NCBI GenBank assembly: GCA_020344215.1
Contig: CP070815.1
Location: 602,894-666,893, forward strand
DNA from: Gemmatimonadota bacterium
Lineage (GTDB): Bacteria > Gemmatimonadota > Gemmatimonadetes > Palauibacterales > KS3-K002
Direction of reading: 5' to 3'
DNA length: 64,000 bases
Positions 11,504 through 25,383 of this stretch are shown one piece after another. The notes beneath the pieces were generated by a model. It did no database searches, was not told the DNA's origin, and was given only the letters and a program-made list of their open reading frames with translations. A program made the translations under genes and the position numbers. The stretch's first letter is position 1; every line of letters begins with the position of its first letter.

Positions 11504-12262
11504 TCAGCCGGCGTTCGCCTGTCGCTCGCCACGACCCGCCGGGTTCGCCCTGAGCACGATCTCCTCTACCGCGACGCTTTCTGGTTGTGCTACAGCGAAA
11601 AACACCGCCTCGGCGACCGCACCCGGGTCGAGCATCTCTGCCCGTGATGGGAGATCGGCTCGCCGATCGGGATCGAATCGATCCCATAGCGGCGTGTCCA
11701 CCGCCGCCGGCTCGATCCACGTCACCCTCAGTCCGCTGCCGTGCAGCTCTTCGACCAGTACTTCATGCAGCCCGCGCAAGCCAAACTTGGAAGCCGAGTA
11801 GGCCGCGTTGCCCGGGAACGCCCTTCGACCTGCTACTGATCCCACATTCACGATGTGTCCGGATCCGCGGGCGAGCATGTCGGGCAAGCAGGCGCGGATG
11901 AGCTCGAACGGCGCCCGCAGATTGACTGCAAGGGCCCGTTCGAAAGCCTCGCTCGCCGTCTCGCTGAACAGCGCAAGCTCGAAGAACCCAGCGTTGTTGA
12001 TCAGGACATCGGGCACGGCGCCCCAAGACTGCTTCACGCGTTCCAGAAGCCGAGCCGCGAACGACCGCTCGCCGAGATCGGCAATGATCGAACGCGCGCC
12101 GAGTCGCGCAGCCAGTTCTTCAAGCGGCCCTGCCCTGCGGCCTAATACCACCAGATCAGCACCGCCGTGCGCCAATCGCTCCGCCACCGCTTGGCCGACA
12201 CCGCCCGTCGCGCCGGTCAGTACGACCCTTACACCCGACAGCTCGCCTCCCGTACTCGTCAC
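11504..12262 (-). CDS. Short-chain dehydrogenase/reductase (SDR); candidate pteridine/sepiapterin-type reductase
   Basis: TGATGGVG Rossmann motif and YSASK catalytic motif. Start overlaps the folE stop by 4 nt. Confidence 0.75.
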
Positions 12263-12885
12263 GATCGGAAGGAGTGAGATGCCACGAGCCGCAAGAACTC
12301 GTCCCGCGTCCGTTGATCGCTTCGGAAGACGCCCTGCACGGAACTCGTGATCGTTCGCGAGTTCTGCTTCTCGACGCCGCGCATCATCATGCAGAGATGG
12401 GCTGCCTCGATTACTACCCCAACGCCCTTCGGCTGCACCGCGTCCTGGATCGCCCGCGCAATTTGGTCCGTGAGGCGCTCCTGAACCTGCAGCCGCCGTG
12501 CGAAAACCTCCACGATCCGTGGCAGCTTGCTGAACCCGATTATTCTACCGTCGGGGATATAGGCGATGTGGGCCTTGCCATAGAACGGCAGGAGGTGATG
12601 CTCGCACATTGAATACAGCTCAATATCTTTGGCAATCACCATCTCGTCGTGCTCGGCCTTAAAGACCCCGTCCCCGATGACCTCGTCAACGCTCATCTCG
12701 TAGCCGCGCGTTAGCCACAGCAACGACTGCTCGACCCTCAGCGGCGTGTTGCTGAGCCCCTCTCGCGCCGGATCCTCACCGAGTATCCGAAGCTGTGCCC
12801 TGATCAGATCCTGCAGCGCTTGCTCGCCGGCCGGGAACCTGACCGTGCCCCCTCGTCCCACTGTCGACTCTCTATTGCCTGGCAT
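12259..12885 (-). CDS. folE: GTP cyclohydrolase I (FolE, zinc-dependent type)
   Basis: [10 protein letters not shown] zinc/active-site motif and a conserved GCH-I core ([20 protein letters not shown]...[34 protein letters not shown]). Confidence 0.9.
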
Positions 12886-13022
12886 TAGCTCTATCCTTCG
12901 CTAGTCTCTCCTCATCGTCCTCGTCATCCTGATCCCCAGCGGCGTCGTCCACGCCAGAAGTCGTTGACGATGAGGATGATGATGGCGGTAAGGACCGAGA
13001 CGGGGCCCCAGACATCGGCGCA

Positions 13023-13436
13023 TCACTCGCCTCGGTACTCCACCAGGTTGCGCTCCGACTCGGAGACGACCACTCGTTCCAACATCCCTTCCGGAAGCAC
13101 CTTCTCGAGTCGACGCCAGACCTGCACCGCGATGTTCTCCGCCGTCGGGATCACACCTTCCATCCACGGCACATCCACATTGAGGTTCGTGTGATCTACA
13201 TCGTTGAGCACAATCTCCTCGACCGTCTCCTTCAGACGCTTCAGATCGAAGACATAACCCGTCTTCGGGTCCACTTCACCTCTGAGCGTGACCTCGAGAC
13301 CGTAGTTGTGGCCGTGGCCGCTCGGGTTGTTGCACAACCCGAAGAGTTCCCGGTTCTCCTGGTCGGATAGCTCGGGGTTGTGCAGGCGGTGGCCGGCGCT
13401 GAAGTGGAGCCGCCGTGTCACACGGACGATGGGCAT
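13023..13436 (-). CDS. queD: 6-pyruvoyl-tetrahydropterin synthase / 6-carboxytetrahydropterin synthase (PTPS/QueD family, Cys-containing type)
   Basis: FSAGHRLHNPELSD...GLCNNPSGHGHNY contains the C-x4-HGH motif of PTPS-I/QueD. 137 aa. Confidence 0.8.
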   Translation of the reverse strand: MPIVRVTRRLHFSAGHRLHNPELSDQENRELFGLCNNPSGHGHNYGLEVTLRGEVDPKTGYVFDLKRLKETVEEIVLNDVDHTNLNVDVPWMEGVIPTAENIAVQVWRRLEKVLPEGMLERVVVSESERNLVEYRGE

Positions 13437-13587
13437 CGGTTAGCTAGCTCACATACGGCGGGGACAACGCTCCCAGAACGCCGCTAGTTAAAGGACCGTG
13501 CGTGGTAAATCGACGCAACTTACAGCATCGCATGGGCTAACGCCAGTTAGGTCCGTCAAGGGGTACGAACCGCGTAAGACGCGGCAC

Positions 13588-13631
13588 AAAAAAGTCGGCC
13601 CCCGAAACTCGGAGGCCGACTGAGCGAAGCT
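13588..13631 (-). terminator. Rho-independent terminator on the minus strand
   Basis: Read on the minus strand: GTCGGCC-TCCGAGTTTCGGG-GGCCGAC followed by TTTTTTGT. A 7-bp perfect GC stem plus U-tract, about 220 nt downstream of the ZIP transporter stop. Confidence 0.65.
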
Positions 13632-13848
13632 GGGGCCGCAGGGCATTCAATTGAAGCCCTCCTGCAACCTGTGGTACCTTCCCTCCGACATACCGCCTTC
13701 CCCAAGGGGCGTGACGTCAGTCGAAGAAGTCAGGTCCGCACATTCTCGTGTTGGCTCAAGAATGGGTCGCTGCGGCCTGCGTCCGCTTAGTCTTATACTA
13801 ATGCGGCGTTTTCTGAACGTCAATTGAACAAAGACCGAAGAATCGAGC

Positions 13849-14664
13849 TCAGTGCGCGGCCAACTTGATCGCAACCATGAGAAGCGAGCCGAGGACGAAC
13901 ATCAAGGTGTTTGTCGGTCGCCCAAGAGCCTGACCCTCCGGCAGCAGATCTGCGGCGCCGACATAGAGGAAAGATCCGCCGGCCAGCGACAACAGGATGC
14001 CGAGCAGTTGGTCCGAGATTCCTCTGAACGTGAAGTAACTGACCAGTAGTGCGAGCGGCGTCACCATCGCCAAGGCGGAAGTGACTAAGGCAGCGCGCTG
14101 TCCGCTGACGCCGGAGTGGTAGAGTGCGGACATCGCCGCGATCCCTACCGGAAGCTTGTGTGCGATGACGAGCAGCGCGGTCACAGAGCCGATCACGGCC
14201 CCCGCGGTCAGGCCGGCGCCTACCGACACGCCATCGACGATCGAGTGGATCGCGAGGCCGCCCACTACCAGCGGACCAACGGTTTGGGTAGGGTGATCGT
14301 GATGGTGTTCGTCGAGGGGGGACTCGCCGCGCGCGTGCACGTGGGGAATGAAATGGGCCTCGACGAGATAGAAGCCGACGAAGGCGACGAGCGCCCAGGT
14401 GAGGCTTAATTCTGGACCGAGTAGCTCCGCTGACCGCGGCAAGAGATGCAGCAGCGCGCCACAAACCAGAAGCCCTGCGGCGAAGGCGATCAGCTCGGCT
14501 GTGTGTTTGATTGCCCACGGCTCGAAGCGGCGAACCGTCCAAACGCCGATAAGCATCCCGAGGGCGGTAAGCAGCGCGAAACCCGTGGCCGCTGCAGGCG
14601 GGGCAGCCCCACTCGCCGCCTCACCGACCACTTCACCTGCCGCTAACGTCGCACCGATGGACAT
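13849..14664 (-). CDS. zupT: ZIP-family metal (zinc) transporter, ZupT-like
   Basis: About 8 TM helices with His-rich interhelix regions (HVHARGESPLDEHHHDHP) and the HKLPVGIAAM / HSIVDG ZIP signatures. Start taken at MSIGATL (complement 14664), not the upstream in-frame extension to 14730. Confidence 0.75.
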   Translation of the reverse strand: MSIGATLAAGEVVGEAASGAAPPAAATGFALLTALGMLIGVWTVRRFEPWAIKHTAELIAFAAGLLVCGALLHLLPRSAELLGPELSLTWALVAFVGFYLVEAHFIPHVHARGESPLDEHHHDHPTQTVGPLVVGGLAIHSIVDGVSVGAGLTAGAVIGSVTALLVIAHKLPVGIAAMSALYHSGVSGQRAALVTSALAMVTPLALLVSYFTFRGISDQLLGILLSLAGGSFLYVGAADLLPEGQALGRPTNTLMFVLGSLLMVAIKLAAH

Positions 14665-14805
14665 CACGTCGCTCTGTCTGTTGCGTATGCCGGGCCGACC
14701 ACAGGGACCTGCGCGATAAGACCGGGGCAATTATAGGAGAAGCGGCACGAGCCTGGCAACAAACAGCTTGACACCCACCCCCGCAACGGGTAGCGTGACT
14801 GAGTC

Positions 14806-15138
14806 ATGGGACTTATCAGGCGCGCCATCGCACTCCAGCTCGTCATGGCCCTACCGGCAGTGGCGGGGGCCCGGCTGGCGCTGGACATACGATCGGCCCC
14901 ACACGCCGAACGGCATGTCGAAGCGAGACACGGCGACAGTTGTGCCAACGCCCATGACCACAGACTCTGCACCCTAGTCTTCAACACCCCGTGGTCGGAC
15001 GCGGCACCGGCGGCGCACGTCGAGCTGTCCGCACCGCCCGCAGTCGCTGCGCTGCTCGTCGCGAGTAGATGCGACAGTGAGGCGCAGGTCCGTCTCCCCC
15101 TCGCCCGCGCTCCTCCAAGCTTCGTTCCAGTCACGTAG
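14806..15138 (+). CDS. Hypothetical small secreted His/Cys-rich protein (uncertain ORF)
   Basis: 110 aa with a signal-peptide-like N-terminus (MGLIRRAIALQLVMALPAVAGA) and a His/Cys segment (HAERHVEARHGDSCANAHDHRLC). Preceded by a TTGACA-17nt-TAGCGT promoter-like element at about 14769-14800. No RBS, several rare codons, and a high-GC genome make a spurious ORF plausible. Confidence 0.25.
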   Translation: MGLIRRAIALQLVMALPAVAGARLALDIRSAPHAERHVEARHGDSCANAHDHRLCTLVFNTPWSDAAPAAHVELSAPPAVAALLVASRCDSEAQVRLPLARAPPSFVPVT

Positions 15139-15246
15139 GTCGGCCCAACGCCGATCTCCCACGCACGCTCACCGGCGCACCGGCGCAGTCCAGCCGCTGT
15201 GTCCGCTGTGTATACTCGCAACCCTGTCAAGCGCGGGAACGGGGCC

Positions 15247-16548
15247 ATGCACAAGAAACGTCTTCGCATCTGTTTGCTCGTGGCCCTGAGCGTCGGAGGC
15301 ATTGTACCCGTCAGCCTCTCGGCTCAGGAAGCGAAGGTCGACAGCCTCGAGGCCCGGATCAGGGAACTCGAGGCCCGGCTCGACAGTCTGCTGGCGGTCC
15401 TGTCACGCGGCGAGCGCCCTGACACCGCTGCCGAGGCAGCGGCAGCGGAGCTGGACGCGCTGCGCGCCGCGCTTCAGGCGGCAGCGGCGGAGCAGCCGCC
15501 GCCCGACACGACCGGCGAGCAGACAAGCCGGGTGCGGAACCTGAATGTCTTGAACCCGGAGATCAGTGTAACCGGCGATGTTGTAGGGACTTACAAGGCT
15601 CCGGCCGAAGGTTGCGACAAGTTCAGCGTTGTACCTCGGGAGTTCGAGTTCGGCTTCCAGGCGGCGCTCGACCCGTACAGCTACACCAAGATCTTTGTGG
15701 CATTCCATGACGGACTCGAGATCGCAGGGTACCCGGAAGAGGAAGGAGGGGAGGAGGGACACGGCCACGTTCACGTCGAAGAGGGCTACTTCTACTACAT
15801 CGGCCTGCCGGTTGGACTGAAGATCGGCAAGTTCCGCCAGGAGATCGGCCTCCACAACCGCTGGCACACGCACGCGCTGTTCGAGATCGACCGTCCCCTG
15901 CCTACGGTGGCCTTTCTGGGCGACGAGGGTCTGATCCAGACGGGACTCTCGTTCACACTCCCGGTCATCACCGCCGGTCCCGGCACTCACGTCGGCACGC
16001 TGGAGATCACGCGAAGCGAGAACGAGGCGCTGTTCGAGGCGGCGAAGGAGATCGGCTTCCTCGGCAACATCCGAAGCTTCTGGGACCTGGGTCCAAGCGC
16101 CTACTTGCAGCTTGGCGCCACCGGGGTGTACGGCGAGAACAAGGACGCCGCCGATCCGTTCGACGCGAGCCTGCTGGCCCTCGATGTCTCATTCCGCTGG
16201 AGGCCACCCAGACAGGCCATGTACCGCGACTTCAACCTCAAAGCCGAGTGGTATTTCGCCAGGCGCGACTTCGGGGCCAGCGAACTGAAGGGAGACGGCG
16301 GCTACGTCCAGGCCAACTACCGACTCAACCGGCGCTGGATCGCCGGCTTCCGGGCCGACTACCTGGACAACTACGGTGCCGGCGGCGAGGTGTACCAGCT
16401 GGTGCCCAGCCTGACCTGGTGGCAGACCGAGTGGGTGTTCTTCAGGCTCCAGTACAACTACTTGAAACCCGAGAGCGGGGACGGCAACCACACCGTTCTA
16501 CTTCAGACCGTCTGGTCGGTAGGACCGCACCGGCACGAGACGTACTGA
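15247..16548 (+). CDS. Outer-membrane porin-like beta-barrel protein (copy 1); OprO/P-like annotation is tentative
   Basis: Signal peptide (MHKKRLRICLLVALSVGGIVPVSLSAQE), an N-terminal coiled coil (AKVDSLEARIRELEARLDSLLAVL), then alternating-hydrophobic beta-strand sequence ending in an aromatic residue. A His-rich loop sits in the middle (EEGHGHVHVEEG). 75-80% identical to the 19148-20452 product. Confidence 0.6.
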   Translation: MHKKRLRICLLVALSVGGIVPVSLSAQEAKVDSLEARIRELEARLDSLLAVLSRGERPDTAAEAAAAELDALRAALQAAAAEQPPPDTTGEQTSRVRNLNVLNPEISVTGDVVGTYKAPAEGCDKFSVVPREFEFGFQAALDPYSYTKIFVAFHDGLEIAGYPEEEGGEEGHGHVHVEEGYFYYIGLPVGLKIGKFRQEIGLHNRWHTHALFEIDRPLPTVAFLGDEGLIQTGLSFTLPVITAGPGTHVGTLEITRSENEALFEAAKEIGFLGNIRSFWDLGPSAYLQLGATGVYGENKDAADPFDASLLALDVSFRWRPPRQAMYRDFNLKAEWYFARRDFGASELKGDGGYVQANYRLNRRWIAGFRADYLDNYGAGGEVYQLVPSLTWWQTEWVFFRLQYNYLKPESGDGNHTVLLQTVWSVGPHRHETY

Positions 16549-16623
16549 TGCCTAGCTCGCAGGCCACAGGGGAAGCGATTGACGGCTTCGCGGAGCGAGG
16601 CCCAGCACAGCAGGAGAAAGAAG

Positions 16624-17736
16624 ATGGGAGTAAGTAAAGGCCGTAGAAGCGCTTGGGACTCAATTCAAGACGCGGCTACATGCCTCCTCGCGATCACGCT
16701 TCTGGCAGCAGAGCCAGCGTACGCTCAAGGAGCACGTCACCGTCACCGACACCAGGGAGGCCAGCAGCGGCTGCTGGTCGTGACGTCGTTGCCCACGTTC
16801 GCGGCGATCACCCGGGAGCTGACGGGCGATCTTGCCGAGGTCGAAGCCATCGCCCGCGGCGATGAGGATCCCCACTTCGTCCAACCCCGGCCGAGCTACG
16901 CGGCCAAGGTCGGGAGAGCCGACCTCTTCGTGACCACCGGGCTAGACCTGGAGATGTGGGCGCCAACAGTCATCGACCGAGCCAACAACCCCAGGGTCGT
17001 CGAAGGCTCCGAGGGCCACGTGGTCACATACCCTGGAGTCAAGCTGCTCGAGGTTCCCGAGGACGTATCGCGCTTCGGCGGGGACGTCCACGCGTTCGGC
17101 AACCCTCACGTTCACACGGACCCGGTCAACGCGATCATCATCGCGGAGAACATCCTCAGGAACCTCACGCAAGTCGATCCGGATAATGCCGAGACCTACG
17201 AGGCGAACTTCCGCGACTTCAAGGATCGGGTGATGCGCCGGCTGTTCGGCGATCAGATCGTGCAGATGCTGGGCGCCGACGCCATCTTCCAGCTGGCACG
17301 GAACTACGAGTTCTGGGGCTTCGCGCGGAATCAGTCCTTTCAGGGAAGGCCGCTGACCGACTACCTGGGCGGCTGGCTGGCGGAGGCGACGCCGTTTCGC
17401 GGTCGACGAATGGCTTGTTACCACAAGAGCTGGGCCTACTTCGGCGCGCGTTTCCAGATCGAGTGTGCCGTTTTCATCGAGCCCAGACCGGGCATCCCGC
17501 CGTCCCCCAGGCACCTGGGGGAGGTCGTCGGGACGATGGGCGACGAGAGTATCCTGGTGCTCTTGGCGGCGAACTACTTCAGCCACAGCCAGGTGGAGCA
17601 AGTGGCTTCCCGCACAAATGCGCGGGCGGTGATCGTCCCACTCGACGTTCGGGGAGCGGAGGGCGTGGACACGTACTTCGACCTGGTGGACCTCTGGGTC
17701 TCGAGCCTGTCCGAGGCGTTCTTGGCTTCGGATTAG
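16624..17736 (+). CDS. Metal (zinc/manganese) ABC transporter substrate-binding protein, ZnuA/TroA-like (copy 1)
   Basis: LLVVTSLPTFAAITRELTGDLAEVEAIARGDEDPHFVQPRPS is the cluster-9 SBP signature. N-terminal His-rich stretch ARHRHRHQ. AGGAG RBS precedes the ATG at 16624. Confidence 0.75.
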   Translation: MGVSKGRRSAWDSIQDAATCLLAITLLAAEPAYAQGARHRHRHQGGQQRLLVVTSLPTFAAITRELTGDLAEVEAIARGDEDPHFVQPRPSYAAKVGRADLFVTTGLDLEMWAPTVIDRANNPRVVEGSEGHVVTYPGVKLLEVPEDVSRFGGDVHAFGNPHVHTDPVNAIIIAENILRNLTQVDPDNAETYEANFRDFKDRVMRRLFGDQIVQMLGADAIFQLARNYEFWGFARNQSFQGRPLTDYLGGWLAEATPFRGRRMACYHKSWAYFGARFQIECAVFIEPRPGIPPSPRHLGEVVGTMGDESILVLLAANYFSHSQVEQVASRTNARAVIVPLDVRGAEGVDTYFDLVDLWVSSLSEAFLASD

Positions 17737-17865
17737 CGCGAGAGCCACGAGTGACAGAGCTGAACTCGAGATATGGCCCCAGATTGGGGCGCGGCCGGGC
17801 TGAGCCTTGTGTAGCGCTGAGACGGGCCCGGTCTCCTGTGGGTACTCGTTGACGGCGGAGACAAG

Positions 17866-18744
17866 ATGCTGGAGCTGATGCTACCGGCCCTCGTGGCCTC
17901 GCTCATCCTGGTCGGGATCCACGCATACCTGGGCATCCACATCATCGCCCGCGGTGTGATCTTCGTGGACCTTGCCCTCGCACAGACCGCCGCCATGGGT
18001 TGGGCGGCCGCTAACCTGGGACTCGCCGACACGCTGGGTGGCTGGTTGGGCGTCCCCGAACCCGCGGCCGGCTACGCCATCGGCCTGGCCGCTACTCTGG
18101 TCGCCGCCGGACTGTTCAGCGTGACACGGATGGAGCACAACTACATACCGCAGGAGGCGATCATCGGGATCGTCTACGTGGTCGCCACAGCGGCCACAAT
18201 CCTGCTCGCCGCCCAAGCGCCGCGCGGATCCGAGCACGTCGAGCAGCTCCTCACCGGCAGCCTCCTGTGGGTGAGCTGGCCCCAGATCTGGAGGACGGCG
18301 GGCATCTACGCGGTTATTGGCGCGGTCCACTGGTTCCTCCGCGAGCGGTTCATGACCATAACGCTGAACCCCGCGGAAGCGCGCAGGAGAGGTTGGCGGA
18401 TAGCAGGGTGGGATTTCCTGTTTTACGCGCTCTTCGGCCTCGTCGTCACTCTGTCGGTTGTGATCGCCGGAGTGCTCGTGGTATTCAGCTTCCTGGTGAT
18501 CCCTGCCGTGATCGCCTTCCTGTTCAGCAGTCAACCCAGCCGGCTCATCGGCATCGCCTGGTTCGCCGGCACGCTAGCGACCGTTGTCGGCCTCTACGGC
18601 TCATACCAAACAGACTGGCCGACCGGTCCGACTGTGGTCGTCGCTTTCGCGGTCGCCCTCATGCTGGCTTTCGTTTTGCGCGGCTTGTTACGGAAGTACG
18701 GCTCGGAGACGGTCGTCGAGACGGGAGTGGCGAGTAACGAATAG
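17866..18744 (+). CDS. Metal ABC transporter permease, ZnuB/ABC-3 family (copy 1, intact)
   Basis: 292 aa with 8-9 TM helices. The family-typical N-terminus MLELMLPALVASLILVGIHAYLGIHIIARGVIFVDLALAQ. Confidence 0.75.
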   Translation: MLELMLPALVASLILVGIHAYLGIHIIARGVIFVDLALAQTAAMGWAAANLGLADTLGGWLGVPEPAAGYAIGLAATLVAAGLFSVTRMEHNYIPQEAIIGIVYVVATAATILLAAQAPRGSEHVEQLLTGSLLWVSWPQIWRTAGIYAVIGAVHWFLRERFMTITLNPAEARRRGWRIAGWDFLFYALFGLVVTLSVVIAGVLVVFSFLVIPAVIAFLFSSQPSRLIGIAWFAGTLATVVGLYGSYQTDWPTGPTVVVAFAVALMLAFVLRGLLRKYGSETVVETGVASNE

Positions 18745-19076
18745 CGGAGAACTCGTTGTTGCCTGGCATGAACTTCTTGACACCCCGTTACAGGCCCAAT
18801 AGTCTGACGCGATAACGCGGGCTTGCGGCTGAATCAGGCGCGGTGCGGCCGCCCGGCTGCTTCTTCCACCTTCGTTGGACAGCGGCAATCCCGGCGCCAC
18901 GGATGGAGGTCGGGGCACGGCTTAGGGCAAGCACGCAAGAAAAGCTGCATCGCGTAGAGCGATGACTCTACCCTCCTCAAGTTTGCTCGTGGCCCACCTG
19001 CCTTAACCTCACCCAGTTATGTGAGCCGCGGCTGTGACGTGGTCTCGGATGGACACCACCCCGGGTCTGGGCCAGT

Positions 19077-19110
19077 CCAGATGGGTAGTCGCGCCAGATG
19101 GGTAGTCGCG
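19077..19110. repeat. 17-bp perfect tandem direct repeat (2 copies)
   Basis: ccagatgggtagtcgcg occurs at 19077-19093 and 19094-19110, 38 nt upstream of the second porin-like gene. Confidence 0.9.
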
Positions 19111-19147
19111 CCCGCTGTGTGGCTGAGCCGGGCGCAGGAGAAGGACT

Positions 19148-20452
19148 ATGCAGAGGAATCGCACCGCAACGCTCGTCGCCTTGGTCCTCACCCTCGCGGC
19201 TGTAGCTCCCACGAGCGTGGCGGCACAGGAAGCGAAAGTGGACAGCCTGGAAGCTCGTATCAAAGAGCTGGAAGCTCGCCTTGATAGCCTGCTCGCGGTA
19301 CTGGCAGGCGGCGAGCGTGCCGACAGTGCGGCGCTGCGGCAGGCCGACGAGCTCGAGGCACTACGTGCTGCGGCGCTGGCGGCTGCCGCCGAGCAGCCGG
19401 AGGCGGACACATCCCAGGAGAGCCGCACGCGCGACCTGAGCATACTCAACCCGGAGATCAGCGTAACTGGCGATGTGGTAGGAACTTACACAGCGCGCGC
19501 CGGGGCCGACAACAGGCTCAGCGGGGTACCGAGGGAGTTCGAGTTCGGATTCGAGTCGGCCCTCGATCCGTACACCCGCACGAAGATCTTCGTGAGCTAC
19601 CATGAGGAGCTCGAGATTGCGGGACTGGAACCGGAGGAAGAAGGTGAGGGGCACGAGCACGGCGGTTTCGAGATCGAGGAAGGTTACCTCTACTGGGTGG
19701 GGCTTCCGGCTAACCTGGGCCTCAAGATCGGCAAGTTCCGGCAAGAGATCGGACTCTACAACCGCTGGCACACACATGCACTCGTCGAGGTGGATCGCCC
19801 GTTGCCGACCGTGGCCTTCTTGGGCGACGATGGTCTAATCCAGACCGGCCTCGCGTTCACTCTCCCCACTGTGGTCACCGGTCCCGGCACGCATATGGCT
19901 ACGCTGGAGATCACCCGGAGTGAGAACGATGCTCTCTTCGAGGCGGCCAAGGAGATCAGCTTCCTCGGTAACTTACGGAGCTTCTGGGACCTAGGTCCTA
20001 GCTCCTACCTGCAGCTCGGCGTGACGGGGGTGTACGGCGCGAACGACGTCGCGGCCGAACCGTTCGATGCAAGCCTGCTCGCCCTGGACATCTCGTTTCG
20101 CTGGCGTCCCCCGGGCAGAGCTCTGTACCGCGACTTCAGCCTCAAGGGCGAATGGTATTATGCCAGGCGGGACTTCGGGTCTACCGACGTCACGGGGGAC
20201 GGAGGATACGTCCAGGCCAACTATCGGCTTAACCGGCGCTGGATCGCGGGGCTGCGGGCCGATTACCTGGACAACTACGGGGAGGGCGGCGAACTGTACC
20301 AGCTGGTCCCGAGCCTCACCTGGTGGCAGAGCGAGTGGGTGTTCTTCCGGCTGCAATACAACTTTGTGAAGCCGGAGAATGGCGACGGCAGCCACACTGT
20401 TCTGCTTCAGACCGTCTGGGCGATGGGGCCACACAAGCACGAGGCGTACTAG
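19148..20452 (+). CDS. Outer-membrane porin-like beta-barrel protein (copy 2)
   Basis: Paralog of 15247-16548 with the same signal peptide + coiled coil + beta-barrel architecture. His-rich loop EEEGEGHEHGG. Confidence 0.6.
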   Translation: MQRNRTATLVALVLTLAAVAPTSVAAQEAKVDSLEARIKELEARLDSLLAVLAGGERADSAALRQADELEALRAAALAAAAEQPEADTSQESRTRDLSILNPEISVTGDVVGTYTARAGADNRLSGVPREFEFGFESALDPYTRTKIFVSYHEELEIAGLEPEEEGEGHEHGGFEIEEGYLYWVGLPANLGLKIGKFRQEIGLYNRWHTHALVEVDRPLPTVAFLGDDGLIQTGLAFTLPTVVTGPGTHMATLEITRSENDALFEAAKEISFLGNLRSFWDLGPSSYLQLGVTGVYGANDVAAEPFDASLLALDISFRWRPPGRALYRDFSLKGEWYYARRDFGSTDVTGDGGYVQANYRLNRRWIAGLRADYLDNYGEGGELYQLVPSLTWWQSEWVFFRLQYNFVKPENGDGSHTVLLQTVWAMGPHKHEAY

Positions 20453-20523
20453 AGCCGGTCCCGGCGTGCGCCCGCGACTGATCGGGTCGAACCCCGAGGC
20501 CGACCAGGAAGGAGAGATTCAGG

Positions 20524-21612
20524 ATGGCTGAATGGGCAAGGCATCCAGGCGCCTTGCGGCGCATGGCGAGCATCGCGCTGGCGCTTCCGCTCCTGTTACC
20601 CGCCAACGCACGCGGTCAGGACAAGCTCCAGGTAGTGACGACGCTGCCCACGTACGCGGCAATCGCCCGGGAGCTAGCCGGCGAGCTCGCCGATGTGAGC
20701 GCTATCGCCCGGGGCGACGAGGATCCCCACTTCGTCAACCCTCGGCCGAGCTTCGCGGCGATGGTGGGCCGGGCGGACGTTTTCGTCGTCACCGGATTGG
20801 ATCTCGAGCTCTGGGTACCTGCAGTCATCGACCGGGCGCGAAATCCGAAGGTTGTAGAGGGAGGACCCGGTCACGTCGTGGCCTATTCCGGCATCGTGTT
20901 GCTGGAGGTCCCCGCGAACATCTCCCGCGCGGGCGGTGACGTTCACGTGTTTGGCAACCCCCACATTCACACCGATCCGGTGAACGGAATCATCATCGCT
21001 CGAAATATCCTCGCGACACTCAAGCGAGCGGATCCGGCAAACGCGGATGTCTATGAGGCAAACGCACAGGCCTTCGAAGACCGCGTGATGCGACGTCTGT
21101 TCGGAGACCAACTGATCGACATCCTCGGAGCGGACCCCATCCTGCAACTTGCTCGCAACTACGAATTCTGGGACTTCGCCAGCAGCCAGAGCTTCCAGGG
21201 CAGACCGCTTACCCACTACCTCGGCGGTTGGCTGGCCGAGGCGGCGCCGTTCCGAGGTCGGCGCATGGCATGCTATCACAAGAACTGGGCCTACTTCAGT
21301 GCCCGATTCCAGGTCCAATGCGCCATTTACATCGAACCGAAGCCAGGCATCCCACCGTCGCCGGGACATATGGCTGAGGTTATCGAGTTCATGGAGGACG
21401 AGAACGTCGGCGTGCTCTTCGCCGCAAATTACTATAGCCGAACACAGGTAGAGCGGGTGGCCTCCCGTACGAACGCACGCGCCGTAGTGGTTCCCGAGCA
21501 CGCGGAGGGCGCGGAAGGTATTGATAGCTATTTCGACCTCATCGACGCCTGGGTGTCCGGCCTCGCCGAGGCTTTCCTGGCGCTGGACCGCAGGCGCGAC
21601 CATCGCGACTGA
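20524..21612 (+). CDS. Metal ABC transporter substrate-binding protein, ZnuA/TroA-like (copy 2)
   Basis: LQVVTTLPTYAAIARELAGELADVSAIARGDEDPHFVNPRPS. AAGGAG RBS 9 nt upstream of the ATG. Paralog of 16624-17736 but lacks the N-terminal His-rich stretch. Confidence 0.75.
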   Translation: MAEWARHPGALRRMASIALALPLLLPANARGQDKLQVVTTLPTYAAIARELAGELADVSAIARGDEDPHFVNPRPSFAAMVGRADVFVVTGLDLELWVPAVIDRARNPKVVEGGPGHVVAYSGIVLLEVPANISRAGGDVHVFGNPHIHTDPVNGIIIARNILATLKRADPANADVYEANAQAFEDRVMRRLFGDQLIDILGADPILQLARNYEFWDFASSQSFQGRPLTHYLGGWLAEAAPFRGRRMACYHKNWAYFSARFQVQCAIYIEPKPGIPPSPGHMAEVIEFMEDENVGVLFAANYYSRTQVERVASRTNARAVVVPEHAEGAEGIDSYFDLIDAWVSGLAEAFLALDRRRDHRD

Positions 21613-21724
21613 AGTTCGCCACGAGCGCGTCCCGAGCTCGACGGCGGGCGCCACAGACTGAGGGGATCGAGGAGGGGGGCGGGACCGGACCCCCGCGCTG
21701 CACTTCCGATCGTACGGCGGAACG

Positions 21725-22587
21725 ATGGCAGAGCTGATGCTTCCGGCCCTCGTGGTCTCACTCATTCTGGTCGGCATCCACGGCTACCTGGGCATTCACA
21801 TCATCGCCCGGGGGGTAATCTTCGTGGACCTGGCCCTTGCACAGGTGGCCGCGCTCGGCTGGGCGGCCGCCGGCTTGGGTCTCTCTGAGGCGCTGGGTGA
21901 CTGGCTGGGGATCCCGGTCTCCGAAGCCGGCTACGCCATAGGGCTCGCCGCCACACTGATCGCCGCAGCCTTGTTCAGTGTCTCGCGGATGGAGCATGAG
22001 TTCGTGCCGCAAGAGGCGATCATCGGGATCGTCTACGTAGTGGCATCGGCAGGGACGATCCTTCTGGCAGCCCAAGCACCGCGCGGCTCGGAACACGTGG
22101 ACGAGCTCCTCTCGGGCAGCCTGCTTTGGGTGGCGTGGCCGGAAATCTTGAAGACCGCTCTCATCTACGCTGTCATTGGCGGGGTACACTGGCTGCTGCG
22201 CGATCGCTTCATCACGATCTCGATGACGCCGGACGAAGCGAAGGCGAGGAGCTGGAAAGTGGTCGGCTGGGACTTCGCTTTCTACGCGTTGTTTGGCGTG
22301 GTCGTCACTTCATCGGTGGCGATCGCAGGGGTGCTGGTCGTGTTCAGCTTCCTCGTAGCCCCGCCGTGATCGCCTTCCTGTTCACTGCGAAACCAGGCAA
22401 GCTGATCGCGATTGCCTATTCGACGGACACGCTGGCCGCAATTGCGGGACTGTACGCCTCGTACGAGACGGATCTGCCAACGGGACCGACGGTGGTGTGC
22501 ACGTTCGCGCTGGCGCTGCTGTCGGCCTTTGCGCTGTCCCAGATCAAGCGCCGCGTGCCCTCGGTATCAGGGGCGACAGCTGAATAG
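21725..22587 (+). pseudogene. ZnuB-like metal ABC permease (copy 2) disrupted by a 1-nt deletion (frameshift)
   Basis: Frame +1 (21725-22369) matches copy 1 up to ...VLVVFSFLV and then hits a stop. The rest of the protein (AVIAFLFTAKPGKL...TGPTVV) continues in another frame, 22126-22587. At DNA level, copy 1 has 'gtg atc cct gcc gtg' where copy 2 has 'gta gcc ccg ccg tg', one base shorter, at about 22355-22370. Confidence 0.6.
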
Positions 22588-22624
22588 CGAGCTGGGGACC
22601 CGGCCTCGCTACGCTCCTGTCCCG

Positions 22625-23236
22625 TTATCTGGGTCTCTCGCTTCGGCTCACCCAGCCGCTTCTGCGGTCGTAGAAGCGCCACCTCTTTGTCGTGCCCTTC
22701 GTGATCCCGACTCGGGTTGTGCGCGCTACCGAACTCTTCGGGACCTTGGTGCCCGGGGTGATGAACAGCGGCGCGTCGCTCAGACGGTGGCGCTGGAGGC
22801 TCGGGCCGATAGCGAGGGCCTGGGTAAGCTTAGCCGGCCCGGAGGTGAGCTCCCGATCCGTGCGACCCGGGCGCCGGCGCCGCATAGTCTCCAAACCTTC
22901 CAGCGGCTCGACGGCTCGGATCAACACGGCGGCGGGGTAGCCTTCGGGCCCCACCACGACGTTAAGGCACCAGTGGACCCCGAAGTTGAGATGGAAATAG
23001 GCCGTCCCCGGGGGACCGAACATGGGGTCGTTACGGGCGGTGCGCCCGATGGGTGCCGCGGCGTGGGAGGCCGGATCGTGCGGACCGGGATAAGCCTCCG
23101 TCTCGACGATCCGGCCCACGCAGCGCTTACCCCCGCAATCGGACACCAGGAAGGAACCGAGCAGCTCCCGCGCTACGGTCTCGGCCGGCCGGTCGAAAAA
23201 GGAGGCGGCGACCAAGGGCCGGTAGCGACCGTTCAT
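22625..23236 (-). CDS. mpg: DNA-3-methyladenine glycosylase (Mpg/AAG family)
   Basis: VGRIVETEAYPGPHDPASHA...FGPPGTAYFHLNFGVHWCLNVV is the Mpg family signature. The ATG overlaps the upstream gene's stop (ATGA at 23234-23238). Confidence 0.8.
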   Translation of the reverse strand: MNGRYRPLVAASFFDRPAETVARELLGSFLVSDCGGKRCVGRIVETEAYPGPHDPASHAAAPIGRTARNDPMFGPPGTAYFHLNFGVHWCLNVVVGPEGYPAAVLIRAVEPLEGLETMRRRRPGRTDRELTSGPAKLTQALAIGPSLQRHRLSDAPLFITPGTKVPKSSVARTTRVGITKGTTKRWRFYDRRSGWVSRSERPR

Positions 23237-25383
23237 CAGTCGCCGGTCTTCCTCTCCTCCCGGCGCGCCTCCAAAACCCGCTCCGCCCGGCGATCGGGCA
23301 GGACCTCGCGGACTCGTTCCGGCTCCTCGTCTAGAATCCGCAGGGTCTCGGCGCCAAACGCCTCGACCAGGGTCTCCGCAGTCTTCTCCCCCACCCCGGG
23401 ATAGCCGGTCAGGCGGGAGACTATGGCGCCGGTGTCGCCGCCGGCGGCCTGCTCAACACGATCCGCCTCGGCGCTCGCAGGCTCGCTGTCCGGCTTCTTC
23501 TGACCCTCGAAGACCGGTGGCGGTGCCTGCGACGGGCGATAGCGACCACGCGTGCCCCAGCGCCCGCGAATCGTACCTCTGGGCGCGCCGGGCAGCGGCG
23601 CCGGCGCGACCGCCGACCGCTTCGATTCGTCGCCCGCTTCCCGCGTCGGCGAAGCCACACCTCGATCGGCATGCTCGGCGGCACCGCCTACTGCCACGTC
23701 GACAGCCGGCGCGGCCGCCAGCGGCGCCGAGGCCACGGCGGCCTCTTCGACATCGACCTCGGCGGCCGAGGGCTCGGGCGGACGTGCAAGACGCTCTTCA
23801 GCACGATGGCCTTTGCGGGGCTCCCGCGGGCCTCTGCCCTCCTCCCGCGTGCGGCGCTCAGCGCCCCCGCGACTCGCCGGCCGCCGCTCTTCGCGCCGAC
23901 CCCTGCCGCCGCGCGCCGACGTCCCTTCAGCCCGCCCCCCGCCGGTCCGGCTTTCCCTCCTGCCCTTCGCTCCCCGCGTGGCCGCGGCCTGTCTACCCCT
24001 CGGCTCACCCCTGCCCTTCCTCGCTTCGCGCGGTTCTTCCGGGCGCTTGCGCTCGGGCGCGCGCGGCTCGCGCTTCGGAGCTGCTGCCGGTGCCTCGCGG
24101 TCCGCCGGCTCCTGGGGACCGGTGCCGAACAGCAAACGTGCCAGACGTTTGACCGTGGATCCTTTCTCACCGGCACTCGGCTCGGCGCTCGGCTGACGCG
24201 GCTTCCTGCGTCGCGCCGACCCCTTCGACCGCCCAACGTGGTAGTTCCCGTTGGGGCCTCTGGTCAGCTCGATGGCGCCTTCCTCGGCGGCCGCGAGCAA
24301 GAACTTGCTGAACTTGCTGAAGCCCAACTCGCCCTCATCGAAGGCCGGATCGATCTCGAGGATACGGCGCTTCACATCGCTGTCACGGACCGAGGCGTCG
24401 TCTGCTTCGAGCAGCGTCCCGAGCGCTCGATCCAGAAGCTCGAGTGCAGACTTCATCGTCAGCTTCGGCCGGGCCCGGCGCGTCCGATCCTCCTCGGTTG
24501 CCCGCGCGCCAGGCTCCGCTGCCTCTCTCACCTTCTCGCGAGCCCGGCGTCCGCCGCGTTCGACCTTCGCTTCCCGCTTCTTCGCTACGCCAGCGCTCTC
24601 CGGCTTGCCCCCCTCGCCCGGCGCGACGCCGTACTGGCCGTTCTCCATCTTCTGGATCGAGACCAGGCCCTGGGAAGCAGCCTCCACAACGAACCGGTTG
24701 AACTTGTTGAAGCCCTGCTCCTTCTCGTTGAAGGAGGGGTCGATCTCCAACATGACCTGCTTCAAGCGGTCAGACCTCATCGTGTCGCCGCGCTCGACCA
24801 TCTTCCCGATGGCCTTCTCGACCAACACCCATGGATCGTGACTCTCGAGCGGTTGATCGCCGCTCCTGCTCAGGCCCGACAGCGACGAGTAGCTGTAGTA
24901 CTCGTCGCAATTCTGCACCAGAAGGTCGGAGCTCGACTCTTGGATCCCCACGCCGATCACGTACTTGCCGTACTCCTTGAGCTTGAGGACCAGGCTGGAG
25001 AAATCGCTGTCCCCCGACATGAGGATGAACGTTCTGATCTCCGGCCGGATGAACACCAGCTCGAGAGCGTCGATCGCCAGCCTGATGTCCGTCGCGTTCT
25101 TCTTCGACGACCCGTATGCCGGCGCGAAGATCAGGTCGATCGACGCCTCCGAGAGCGGCACGATGTACTGCGGATAACGACGCCAGTCCGCGTACGCCCG
25201 CTGCACCGCTACCTTCCCACGTATCACGTCGGAGTTCAGGAGATTGCGGAGTTCCTGACCGAGGTTCGACCGGATGCCCATCGTGACGTTGTCGAAATCG
25301 ATGAGCAGCGCGGCCTGAAGTGAATCTTCCACGTCGGCGCGACTATCGCTCCGACGCTCAGGCGAGTCTTGTCGCATTCCCAT
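23236..25383 (-). CDS. NYN (LabA-like) nuclease-domain protein with two OST-HTH/LOTUS domains, a long Arg/Glu/Ala/Pro-rich low-complexity region and a C-terminal helix-hairpin-helix motif
   Basis: N-terminal NYN core (LLIDFDNV...AYGSSKKNATDIRLAIDALELVF...FILMSGDSDFSSLVLKLKEYGKYVIGVG). Two OST-HTH repeats (LKQVMLEIDPSFNEKEQGFNKFNRFVVEA; VKRRILEIDPAFDEGELGFSKFSKFLLAA). About 300 aa of RE/AP-rich disorder. C-terminal LTGYPGVGEKTAETLVEAFG (HhH). Confidence 0.65.
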   Translation of the reverse strand: MGMRQDSPERRSDSRADVEDSLQAALLIDFDNVTMGIRSNLGQELRNLLNSDVIRGKVAVQRAYADWRRYPQYIVPLSEASIDLIFAPAYGSSKKNATDIRLAIDALELVFIRPEIRTFILMSGDSDFSSLVLKLKEYGKYVIGVGIQESSSDLLVQNCDEYYSYSSLSGLSRSGDQPLESHDPWVLVEKAIGKMVERGDTMRSDRLKQVMLEIDPSFNEKEQGFNKFNRFVVEAASQGLVSIQKMENGQYGVAPGEGGKPESAGVAKKREAKVERGGRRAREKVREAAEPGARATEEDRTRRARPKLTMKSALELLDRALGTLLEADDASVRDSDVKRRILEIDPAFDEGELGFSKFSKFLLAAAEEGAIELTRGPNGNYHVGRSKGSARRRKPRQPSAEPSAGEKGSTVKRLARLLFGTGPQEPADREAPAAAPKREPRAPERKRPEEPREARKGRGEPRGRQAAATRGAKGRRESRTGGGRAEGTSARGGRGRREERRPASRGGAERRTREEGRGPREPRKGHRAEERLARPPEPSAAEVDVEEAAVASAPLAAAPAVDVAVGGAAEHADRGVASPTREAGDESKRSAVAPAPLPGAPRGTIRGRWGTRGRYRPSQAPPPVFEGQKKPDSEPASAEADRVEQAAGGDTGAIVSRLTGYPGVGEKTAETLVEAFGAETLRILDEEPERVREVLPDRRAERVLEARREERKTGD

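Follow-up and report, generated by a model that had tools for sequence, protein, structure and literature searches.

Two copies of a putative porin-assisted, arrest-peptide-regulated metal-uptake operon without a linked ATPase gene in a Gemmatimonadota genome

A stretch of 64,000 nucleotides from a Gemmatimonadota bacterium (contig CP070815.1, positions 602,894 to 666,893; hereafter the window) contains two consecutive gene cassettes. Each cassette codes for an outer-membrane protein (OMP), a substrate-binding protein (SBP) of the ZnuA family and a permease of the ABC-3 family of ATP-binding cassette (ABC) importers. In an earlier reading of the sequence alone (the sequence-only reading), the two were described as an old tandem duplication of a zinc-uptake cassette that has no ATPase gene. 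The locus raises the questions of how such genes are controlled, which metal they carry, how the permease is energised and how two copies came to lie side by side. Our analysis indicates that the window probably holds two paralogous copies of a four-gene Gemmatimonadota operon for metal uptake, which is assisted by a porin, regulated by an arrest peptide and dependent on an unlinked ATPase. The fourth gene is a short leader gene in front of the porin gene. Cassette 1 is complete in this genome. Cassette 2 consists of a promoter, a pseudo-leader, OMP2, SBP2 and a pseudo-permease, and is decaying.

The module is a common property of the phylum. All close homologues of the cassette genes come from metagenome-assembled genomes of Gemmatimonadota. 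With one genome taken per species, 440 relatives of the OMP were collected, and the best 80 of the 440 all belong to Gemmatimonadota. The SBP gene follows the OMP gene in 75 of the 75 assessable Gemmatimonadota cassettes and the permease gene in 69 of 69. The tight linkage of a porin with a ZnuA-family SBP and an ABC-3 permease, which the sequence-only reading had proposed from the window, therefore holds for the phylum.

The leader gene and the control of the operon

The region before the first porin gene (14731-15246) had been listed simply as an upstream region. It was found to contain a conserved operon gene for a protein of 110 residues, the first gene of cassette 1 (Table 1). By tblastn, this leader gene was detected 5' of the OMP gene in 28 related loci. 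An open reading frame (ORF) of the same type, defined by R[AGS]PP no more than 15 residues from the C-terminus and hereafter called the RAPP type, precedes 68 of the 78 assessable cassettes. The leader ORF always lies directly 5' of the OMP gene in the same orientation, and 52-313 nt separate the two.

The leader proteins share a fixed design. Basic residues followed by a hydrophobic stretch were seen at the N-terminus of all 23 + 44 aligned members, as judged from the sequence, and an N-terminal export signal or an N-in transmembrane segment is predicted. The window protein carries the motifs E39..H (E..EH), H50-D-H52-x-L-C55 (ending in H52-R-L-C55) and R101-A-P-P104. When 23 orthologues were aligned, P17, R23, D27, H50, C55, R101, P103 and P104 were invariant. 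Exactly 45 residues lie between C55 and R101 of the window leader. Across the loci, [H/C]xxC is placed 43-46 residues before R[AGS]PP in 38, and exactly 45 residues before it in 25. The second Cys of this sensor motif is invariant; at the first position of the motif, 31 loci have His (HxxC), 7 have Cys (CxxC) and the others a different residue. Some members show the pattern H-x3-C-x3-H-x4-C.

The same design is known from CruR (Bp2923), a DUF2946 protein of Bordetella pertussis. CruR has an export signal, a CXXC motif, 45 further residues and a near-C-terminal RAPP; its gene is the first in the operon and is separated by a long spacer from the next gene of a metal-uptake operon (PMC9426467). 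The nascent CruR chain senses copper, by which the ribosome arrest at RAPP is relieved and Rho-dependent termination is permitted (PMC9426467). The arrest of CruR was demonstrated in vitro, and both RAPP and RGPP have been validated as arrest motifs by structural and biochemical work, with RSPP being partly permissive (PMC10951233, PMC12992588). The RAPP motif is strongly avoided elsewhere in proteomes. The phyla named in a survey of DUF2946 are Proteobacteria, a few Planctomycetes, Firmicutes and Deinococcus, and Gemmatimonadota is not among them (PMC9426467).

The relation of the Gemmatimonadota leaders to this family was followed by profile. An exhaustive HMMER search of 1.84 billion representatives with the leader family profile retrieved 89 clusters. 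Within the 44 most distant relatives, C..RAPP is invariant and HDH is near-invariant. The Pfam model PF11162 matched 7 of these 44 (best E 5e-7) and 2 of the 23 close relatives (E 0.012). A database search with the leader alignment returned only 25 "hypothetical proteins" of Gemmatimonadota, without Pfam domains. At the sequence level, the leader is thus a divergent branch that is joined to DUF2946 only transitively.

A remnant of the same gene was recognised in front of OMP2. Weak tblastn fragments against the leader proteins of type 2, the group to which cassette 2 belongs, lie in colinear order: the N-terminus (18818-18904), the motif region (18926-18970) and RGPP, as an ARGPP remnant (18976-19005). 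Each fragment match is weak alone (E 0.02-0.2), and it is the colinearity that carries the reading. The start codon is lost, an in-frame stop is present, HDHxxC is destroyed and about 100 nt are deleted. The 403-bp spacer between the cassettes gave no DNA match to any related locus.

The 110-residue protein could instead be a structural metallochaperone, periplasmic or membrane-anchored, and not a regulator. It is a predicted exported protein translated from the transporter's own mRNA, and its conserved His, Cys and Glu residues would suit metal binding. This is unlikely, because the RAPP motif is invariant near the C-terminus at a fixed distance of 45 residues, the hallmark of arrest, while the stretch between the sensor motif and RAPP is poorly conserved and of low complexity. 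Furthermore, cassette 2 has lost the leader gene yet kept porin and SBP. The roles of chaperone and regulator are not mutually exclusive, and the role of an arrest peptide is the one preferred here.

The promoter read for cassette 1 ends 9 nt before the leader ATG, and TTGACA-17-TAnnnT is found 8-10 nt before the leader ATG in at least 20 related loci. With the start codon only 8-10 nt after the -10 box, the transcript would be leaderless or nearly so, and this suggests a (near-)leaderless operon mRNA throughout the clade. No Shine-Dalgarno sequence is seen between the TAnnnT -10 box and the start of the leader gene, at 14796-14806 of the window and in about 20 related loci. The promoter of the divergent ZIP gene, described below, and that of cassette 1 stand back-to-back. 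More than 15 related loci keep the blocks of the ZIP promoter, which read AAGATAC and GCAAC on the + strand. The -10 box of the cassette-2 promoter matches the type found in type-2 relatives, as compared with L001, L006, L008 and L009 (related loci are cited by such numbers where they must be told apart). Across the control regions of 23 loci, the promoter hexamers are the sole conserved blocks.

Other control elements were searched for. The upstream regions had been suggested for a Zur-box search; no palindrome was found there, and the back-to-back promoters and the CruR-like leader gene were found instead. In 14640-14830, no inverted repeat of at least 12 nt was detected in a search made without a phylum-specific Zur motif as guide. 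Within 12000-24000, no Rfam or riboswitch match was obtained even at E <= 1. The 108-nt spacer between the leader gene and OMP1 has no stable fold (RNA fold z-score -0.24, no better than shuffles), and the number of intrinsic terminators is not above the shuffled expectation.

The transport proteins, the ATPase and the metal

The first protein after the leader was modelled with AlphaFold2. OMP1 consists of a signal peptide, a coiled coil (about residues 27-53 and 61-81) and a 16-strand barrel (residues 105-425). The heptad positions V31, L34, I38, L41, L45, L48 and L52 follow a spacing of 3-4 within residues 31-52. The model, made from a 40-sequence alignment, has a predicted local distance difference test score (pLDDT) of 77.9, with barrel blocks at 85-97. 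Sixteen long strands were assigned by DSSP, together with a 32-residue loop between beta5 and beta6 that contains a short helix. In the Foldseek comparison with the PDB, the best 50 matches listed are outer-membrane beta-barrels, and nearly all are porins of 16 or 18 strands, including OmpU/T, Omp32, PorB, OprP, OprO, OprB and DcaP. The matches have a probability of 1.0, E values of 1e-11 to 1e-8, template-modelling (TM) scores of about 0.4-0.55 and an identity of about 10-14%. The claim that the first gene of each cassette encodes a genuine beta-barrel porin with an N-terminal coiled coil is supported by both model and Foldseek.

The conserved residues of the porin point to its constriction. 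The beta5-beta6 loop is the L3 constriction loop of classical porins, and it presumably folds inward here. The most conserved stretch of the family, GKFRQEIGLYNRWHTHAL..RPL, lies within this loop. Invariant histidines are found in NRWHTH of L3 and in the C-terminal GPH(K/R)HE.Y (GPHxHExY; GPHRHETY in OMP1). Because the conserved residues are His and acidic, selectivity for cations rather than anions is suggested, and the porin may be a cation-selective entry route. It is probably trimeric. The His-rich loop noted in the sequence-only reading is present in the sense that the acidic loops contain His; it is not a conserved feature, since the extracellular loop L2, which joins strands 3 and 4, is acidic in the whole family while its His content varies between relatives.

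The SBP is a clear member of the ZnuA family (PF01297), with 153.4 bits for SBP1 and 152.5 for SBP2 against a cut-off of 29. The AlphaFold2 model of SBP1 (pLDDT 84.9) has the cluster A-I fold and reaches TM-scores to the target of 0.80-0.86 in Foldseek, with YfeA, ZnuA, MntC, PsaA and AztC among its matches. A long backbone helix is followed by a helical insertion of about 50 residues, and two Cys are conserved. In an alignment that also included YfeA, the motifs DPH, NPH and YHK(S/N)W fall on His83, His179 and His243 of Synechocystis ZnuA; they are invariant in 39-69 relatives. A zinc-type site with three His ligands is predicted from this alignment.

The two paralogues differ near this site. 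The family carries VPEH at the position of the Asp ligand of Mn/Fe binders, and SBP2 is typical in this and has no N-terminal His tract. SBPs of type 1, the group of cassette 1, including SBP1, have VPLD in place of VPEH (17620-17640) and a tract of the RHRHRH type after the signal peptide (16720-16760). The exchange of VPEH for VPLD is possibly a change of metal ligand between the paralogues, and together the VPLD and the RHRHRH tract give a hint of functional divergence.

PERM1 matches ABC-3 (PF00950) with 118.4 bits against a cut-off of 20.1, and is a full-length match to E. coli ZnuB (9oko) and pneumococcal PsaC (7kyp). The permease family conserves IARGVIFVDLALAQ, APRGxEHVE and FLVIPAVIAFLF. 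It also keeps the ZnuB-like cytoplasmic motif SP..A...G(W), at what we take to be the position of the coupling helix. The GDxxxH of ZnuB and PsaC in the second transmembrane helix reads VDLALAQ here. The best NCBIfam matches of SBP and permease are AztC and AztB. All equivalog scores of the cassette proteins are far below their cut-offs (AztC 79.7 against 350, ZnuB 46.6 against 284), so these proteins form a separate subfamily.

The search for an ATPase covered the window and the flanks of 82 cassettes in related genomes (0.9 Mb). The sequence-only reading stated that no ZnuC-type ATPase is encoded in or beside either cassette, and this holds in the window and in about 80 related genomes. By a scan for Walker A and LSGGQ, the sole ABC ATPase of the window is of the DrrA/GldA type and is 11 kb away (Table 1). 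No ATPase ORF of ZnuC size lies within 5 kb of the 82 cassettes in the about 80 related genomes; the lack of a linked ATPase is thus a conserved property of the module and not a quirk of the window. In 81 related loci, tblastn and the motif scan returned FtsE beside FtsX and two large unrelated proteins. The motif scan also showed tandem ATPase pairs, probably Dpp-like, more than 6 kb upstream in some related loci. No conserved gene that could be a novel energiser follows the permease in the related loci, and a tblastn search of the PLSDB plasmids with the permease gave no match.

An ATPase encoded elsewhere and acting in trans is judged most likely, because the permease looks fully ABC-like. 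The alternative is that the permease works without an ATPase, either as an SBP-dependent secondary carrier or facilitator, or with SBP and porin feeding the neighbouring ZIP transporter. The phylum-wide lack of an ATPase gene within 5 kb, the missing energiser gene downstream and the replacement of GDxxxH by VDLALAQ would all fit this alternative, and so would the sharp limits of the operon, with the divergent ZIP gene on one side and the convergent mpg gene on the other. It is nevertheless very unlikely in our estimate. The permease is homologous to ZnuB and PsaC over its full ABC-3 length and keeps the motif at the presumed coupling helix; unlinked or shared ATPases such as MsiK and MsmX are well known in other ABC importers; and the ATPase searches in the genomes covered the neighbourhoods of the cassettes only.

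With the ATPase in trans preferred, the following mechanism is proposed. Each cassette would have a sigma-70-type promoter of its own and give a (near-)leaderless mRNA, coding in order for the exported RAPP leader, the 16-strand porin, the three-His SBP of the ZnuA family and the ZnuB-type ABC-3 permease. Under scarcity of the metal, most likely Zn2+, ribosomes would stall at RAPP and the downstream genes would be expressed. When the metal binds the nascent leader, the stall would be relieved and downstream expression would fall, as with CruR and copper; this metal-relieved arrest is proposed by analogy with CruR. The porin would admit the cation across the outer membrane, and the SBP would capture the metal and pass it to the permease, which would be energised by the ATPase encoded elsewhere in the genome. 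The direction of transport would then be uptake.

Zn2+ as the substrate has to be weighed against copper, as in the operons headed by CruR, and against Mn, Fe or Ni. CruR, the sole DUF2946 leader that has been characterised, is a copper sensor at the head of copper-uptake operons (PMC9426467), and metal-related porins are known for Mn (MnoP) and for Cu (RopAe) (PMC6011978). Upstream ORFs with RAPP are enriched 5' of copper-related genes. The best PDB matches of the SBP, by structure and by sequence, include the Mn/Fe binders YfeA, MntC and PsaA. Other observations argue against these metals. The leader sensor is mostly HDHxxC with E..EH and not the thiophilic CXXC, and no Met-rich motifs are present. 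The third ligand position of the SBP (YHKxW) is His as in ZnuA and TroA, and not the Glu of the Mn/Fe binders YfeA and PsaA. The recurrent neighbour of the module is a ZIP transporter or a zinc-dependent alkaline phosphatase, and in Caulobacter a DUF2946 gene also stands first in czrCBA, an operon for Zn/Cd efflux. Metals other than zinc are therefore considered a minor possibility, and Zn2+ is retained as the likely substrate.

Several observations weigh against the operon as proposed. On the side of control, the window leader gives no match to PF11162 even at E <= 5, its RAPP stands 6 and not 3 residues before the C-terminus, and 10 of the 78 assessable cassettes have no detectable RAPP ORF. 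The characterised DUF2946 member, CruR, is a copper sensor (PMC9426467). The spacer between leader and porin is C-rich in type 1 only; because the type-2 spacers are not C-rich, a Rho-dependent step would be pure analogy with CruR. On the side of transport, no ATPase partner was found in the window or in the cassette flanks, and the ABC mechanism is incomplete as observed. The structural neighbours of the SBP are binders of Mn, Fe or Zn. In the OMP1 model, confidence is low for the N-terminal helices and the His loop, and the trimer formation and ion selectivity of the porin are predicted properties. The barrel family, which the sequence-only reading proposed to check, was settled to the extent that all top structural matches are porins; the Porin_O_P model (PF07396) matches only partially and just under its cut-off of 20.9, with 19.0 bits for OMP1 and 17.1 for OMP2, and it matches 7 of 40 OMP relatives (best E 3.4e-6).

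The two cassettes, their history and their neighbours

The positions of all features are collected in Table 1. The ORF listing and Pfam confirm the two successive units of identical gene order that had been described. The protein identity between them had been put at 75-80%, and the global values are lower: 73.5% for the OMPs, 68.5% for the SBPs and 71% for the permeases. Two blocks of DNA homology were found, 15320-16546 with 19221-20450 (76.3%) and 16770-18659 with 20625-22517 (71.6%). With a dS of about 1.1-1.6, synonymous sites have reached saturation, and dN/dS is 0.14-0.20, which indicates an old divergence of the cassettes under purifying selection.

Table 1 Features of the window discussed in the text, with their positions, strands and supporting observations.
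Feature	Position	Strand	Basis or remark
ZIP-gene promoter, TTGCCA-18-TATAAT, sigma-70-type	14730-14759	-	11/12 consensus matches
Cassette-1 promoter, TTGACA-17-TAGCGT	14768-14796	+	read from sequence; putative function
Leader gene, CruR/DUF2946-like, 110 residues	14806-15138	+	first gene of cassette 1; conserved at protein level in relatives
Leader-porin spacer, 108 nt	15139-15246	+	C-rich, 41% C, 30% G
OMP1	15247-16548	+	cassette 1; ORF listing and Pfam
SBP1	16624-17736	+	cassette 1; ORF listing and Pfam
PERM1, ABC-3 permease, 292 residues	17866-18744	+	cassette 1; intact
Cassette-2 promoter, TTGACA-17-TAGTCT	18777-18805	+	read from sequence
Wreck of cassette-2 leader gene	18818-19005	+	colinear weak tblastn fragments against type-2 leader proteins
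OMP2	19148-20452	+	cassette 2; intact paralogue of OMP1, 73.5% identical
SBP2	20524-21612	+	cassette 2; intact paralogue of SBP1, 68.5% identical; exact copy on Logan contig L085
Permease 2	21725-22587	+	cassette 2; frameshifted
ZIP-family (ZupT-like) permease	13849-14664	-	Pfam Zip 87 bits; divergent from cassette 1
PTPS/QueD-like	13023-13436	-	below both NCBIfam cut-offs
FolE type I	12259-12885	-	
SDR	11504-12262	-	
NYN + OST-HTH/LOTUS + helix-hairpin-helix protein	23236-25383	-	adjoins mpg in many relatives
218-residue protein with Trm112-like zinc-ribbon	9562-10218	-	
Transglutaminase-core protein	4130-5686		
DrrA/GldA-type ABC ATPase	3375-4133	-	sole ABC ATPase in the window
PF16949 membrane protein	1684-3378	-	paired with the DrrA/GldA-type ATPase

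Cassette 2 carries a frameshift in its permease gene. One nucleotide is deleted at 22358/22359, and a stop at 22367-22369 removes about the last quarter of the protein. The sequence reads GTAG-CCCCGCC where all 15 homologues read GTN-ATN-CCN-GCN (VIPA). No relaxed selection after the frameshift was detectable, with the nonsynonymous divergence (dN) of the 3' part within the range of intact orthologues; because this part shows no excess, the lesion is recent.

The duplication or the frameshift could be an error of assembly or sequencing, the DNA being metagenome-derived and the frameshift adjoining a run of four C. Two contigs of the independent Logan assembly (run SRR14739666) bear on this. 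Contig L086 reproduces the part from the ZIP gene to PERM1, and contig L085 reproduces PERM1, OMP2, mpg and the NYN gene with 99.94% identity to the window (4 mismatches in 6509 bp). The same arrangement and junctions are thus present on independent contigs, in agreement with the statement that the duplication is not an assembly artefact. The permease-2 lesion is also present on L085, where it was called as genes of 214 and 73 residues. A sequencing error behind the frameshift was rejected on this evidence and because the lesion swaps "AT" for "G" against all homologues, which is not a simple change of homopolymer length. The cassettes differ at 24-31% of nucleotides, so a collapse or mis-joining of copies is impossible, and two cassettes are also present in a related genome. 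An artefact is hence a negligible explanation, and the two cassettes are treated as real.

The history of the cassettes was examined by comparison with related loci. In the tree of concatenated sequences, cassette 1 of the window forms a type-1 clade with the second cassette of L084 and with L004, at 100% bootstrap. The type-2 sequences comprise cassette 2 of the window with L012, L006, L007, L009 and L001, and the first cassette of L084 with L005; the node of the type-2 clade has a support of 36%. The single-copy OMPs of L001, L006, L007 and L009 share 78-81% identity with OMP2. The single cassettes of another lineage, L002 and L013, join type 1 at 63%, and they share its VPLD (VPLDV) signature in the SBP. 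At the locus between ZIP and mpg, type 2 alone is present in L001, L007, L009, L012, L006 and L005, and type 1 alone in L004. The closed near relatives CP070812.1 and CP070823.1 have the synteny ZIP-cassette-mpg-NYN with a single cassette. On this sequence comparison, the cassette paralogues clearly predate the species.

The order of the types is not constant. The window has cassette 1 before cassette 2, and L084 (74-7422) and L014 have the opposite order, [2]-leader1-[1]-mpg. L008 (1418-4454) is a hybrid with OMP and SBP of type 2 and a permease of type 1 that is 94% identical to PERM1. Between the window and L084, the type-1 genes are 86-87% identical and the type-2 genes only 74-82%. In trees of the flanking genes, the window groups with L012, L001 and L004, and L084 and L005 fall outside. 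These sequence relations indicate a locus that is recombinationally active, with recombination between cassettes.

Two histories are about equally tenable on these sequence data, a duplication in situ with differential loss and the lateral acquisition of a homeologous cassette. In the second, types 1 and 2 would be versions of the ancestral operon from different lineages, and the second version would have been inserted beside the resident one by transfer and recombination, as independent events in several genomes. The reversed order beside mpg in L084 and L014, the hybrid L008, the relatives with a single cassette of either type at the same locus, the grouping of the fully supported type-1 clade with L002 and L013, and the lower identity of window and L084 in type 2 all speak for it. 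However, the key nodes are weak (63% and 36%), and an old duplication with differential loss and rearrangement of the array fits the same pattern. No mobile-element genes or repeats flank the window cassettes, and the contigs of L084 and L014 end at the cassettes, so that their upstream flank is absent from the comparison. A lateral origin is accordingly a serious candidate that falls somewhat short of probable. The "old tandem duplication" of the sequence-only reading stands as regards the age of the paralogues, whose dS is saturated; a simple tandem duplication is not established, since order and type vary in the relatives.

The neighbouring genes were compared in the same loci. The divergent ZIP gene has an ORF that extends to 14730 with a TTG start, and its likely ATG start is at 14664; in NCBIfam, its match to ZupT is below the cut-off. 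A divergent ZIP gene is found 5' of the cassette in 29 related loci, and because it shares the control region of the cassette, a functional link is supported. A PhoA-type alkaline phosphatase is located directly 5' of the module, on the same strand, in about 21 Gemmatimonadota loci (for example L024, 8334-9521); the divergent ZIP gene takes its place in the clade of the window.

FolE type I, the PTPS/QueD-like gene and the SDR gene accompany the cassette in one clade only, and by sequence the trio looks like a pterin pathway of the tetrahydrobiopterin type. Zinc-starvation regulons usually carry zinc-independent paralogues such as FolE2, and the FolE and PTPS/QueD-like genes of the window are not of this kind. 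The proposed zinc-homeostasis island of 12-22 kb is thus retained for the divergent ZIP gene and not for the pterin-like genes.

Other genes of the window are recorded as separate observations. The NYN protein next to mpg has a low-complexity linker of about 300 residues rich in Arg, Glu, Pro and Ala, with a local GC of 0.72-0.74. The pair of PF16949 membrane protein and DrrA/GldA-type ATPase is downstream of the transglutaminase-core gene, all three being on the - strand; L001 and L002, too, have the transglutaminase gene at their edge. The 218-residue protein has an N-terminal Trm112-like zinc-ribbon (CxxC...CxxC) fused to a further C-terminal domain.

Significance and comparison with known systems

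Each component of the module is of a known kind. What is new is how they are combined, together with the His-type sensor, the phylum and an ATPase gene that is systematically lacking. Zinc passage through the outer membrane is known mainly for TonB-dependent receptors. The porin that is linked throughout the phylum to a ZnuA/ZnuB pair is a concrete candidate for a channel dedicated to cations. Since an ATPase gene is consistently absent, the question arises of how ABC-3 permeases of Gemmatimonadota are energised. A bolder claim would be that the HDHxxC-45-RAPP leader senses zinc, as the first non-copper member of the CruR class, and also that the permease has no dedicated ATPase anywhere in the genome. 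Both together are quite unlikely; if true, the permease would either make use of a nucleotide-binding protein with a housekeeping role or be a secondary carrier that depends on the binding protein. In annotations, the 110-residue gene is usually missing or entered as "hypothetical", and the operon carries the wrong label of a simple ZnuA/ZnuB pair.

Compared with ZnuABC of E. coli and Synechocystis and with AztABCD of Paracoccus, the SBP has the same cluster A-I fold with His ligands at the same three positions, and PERM1, like ZnuB, is a full-length ABC-3 homologue. Unlike in those systems, the SBP has the helical insertion of about 50 residues and the two conserved Cys, a porin and a leader gene are inside the operon, no Zur-type operator was seen, and the ZnuC/AztA ATPase gene is missing from the operon in about 80 genomes.

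The porin resembles the trimeric specific porins OprP, OprO and DcaP in its 16-strand barrel and long beta5-beta6 loop (Foldseek matches 2o4v, 4rjw and 6eus, E 1e-10 to 1e-9), and DcaP too has an N-terminal periplasmic coiled coil. Unlike the arginine ladder of OprP and OprO, the conserved residues are mainly His, Glu and Asp. Porins dedicated to one divalent metal have precedents in MnoP, the Mn2+ channel of Bradyrhizobium, and the copper-related RopAe of Rhizobium etli, in which a porin is co-regulated with the uptake of one divalent metal (PMC6011978). These two, compared by description only, belong to other porin families and are not in an operon with SBP and permease.

The closest parallel of the leader is CruR. 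Both are small, exported (by prediction for the present leader) and encoded at the head of a metal-uptake operon in which an outer-membrane transporter is also found, and both have a sensor that ends in Cys 45 residues before a C-terminal RAPP, with a spacer of at least 100 nt to the next gene. Unlike CruR, the Gemmatimonadota leaders have mostly HDHxxC (HxxC) as sensor, with CxxC in only 7 loci; they are barely detected by the Pfam model; their mRNA is apparently leaderless; and the metal sensed is probably not copper. The CruR operon continues with a TonB-dependent transporter and PepSY, whereas porin, SBP and ABC-3 permease follow here. In the DUF2946 survey, the partners are TonB-dependent transporters, PepSY, PCuAC, ScoC, YcnI, CopC, MbnPH-like and AhpC_TSA proteins, and no porin, SBP or ABC-3 permease is named (PMC9426467). 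The leader would thus add to the RAPP arrest-peptide metal sensors a further phylum, another type of operon and a sensor motif based on His, and because it differs from CruR in these three respects, it offers a natural variant for how a nascent chain encodes metal specificity.

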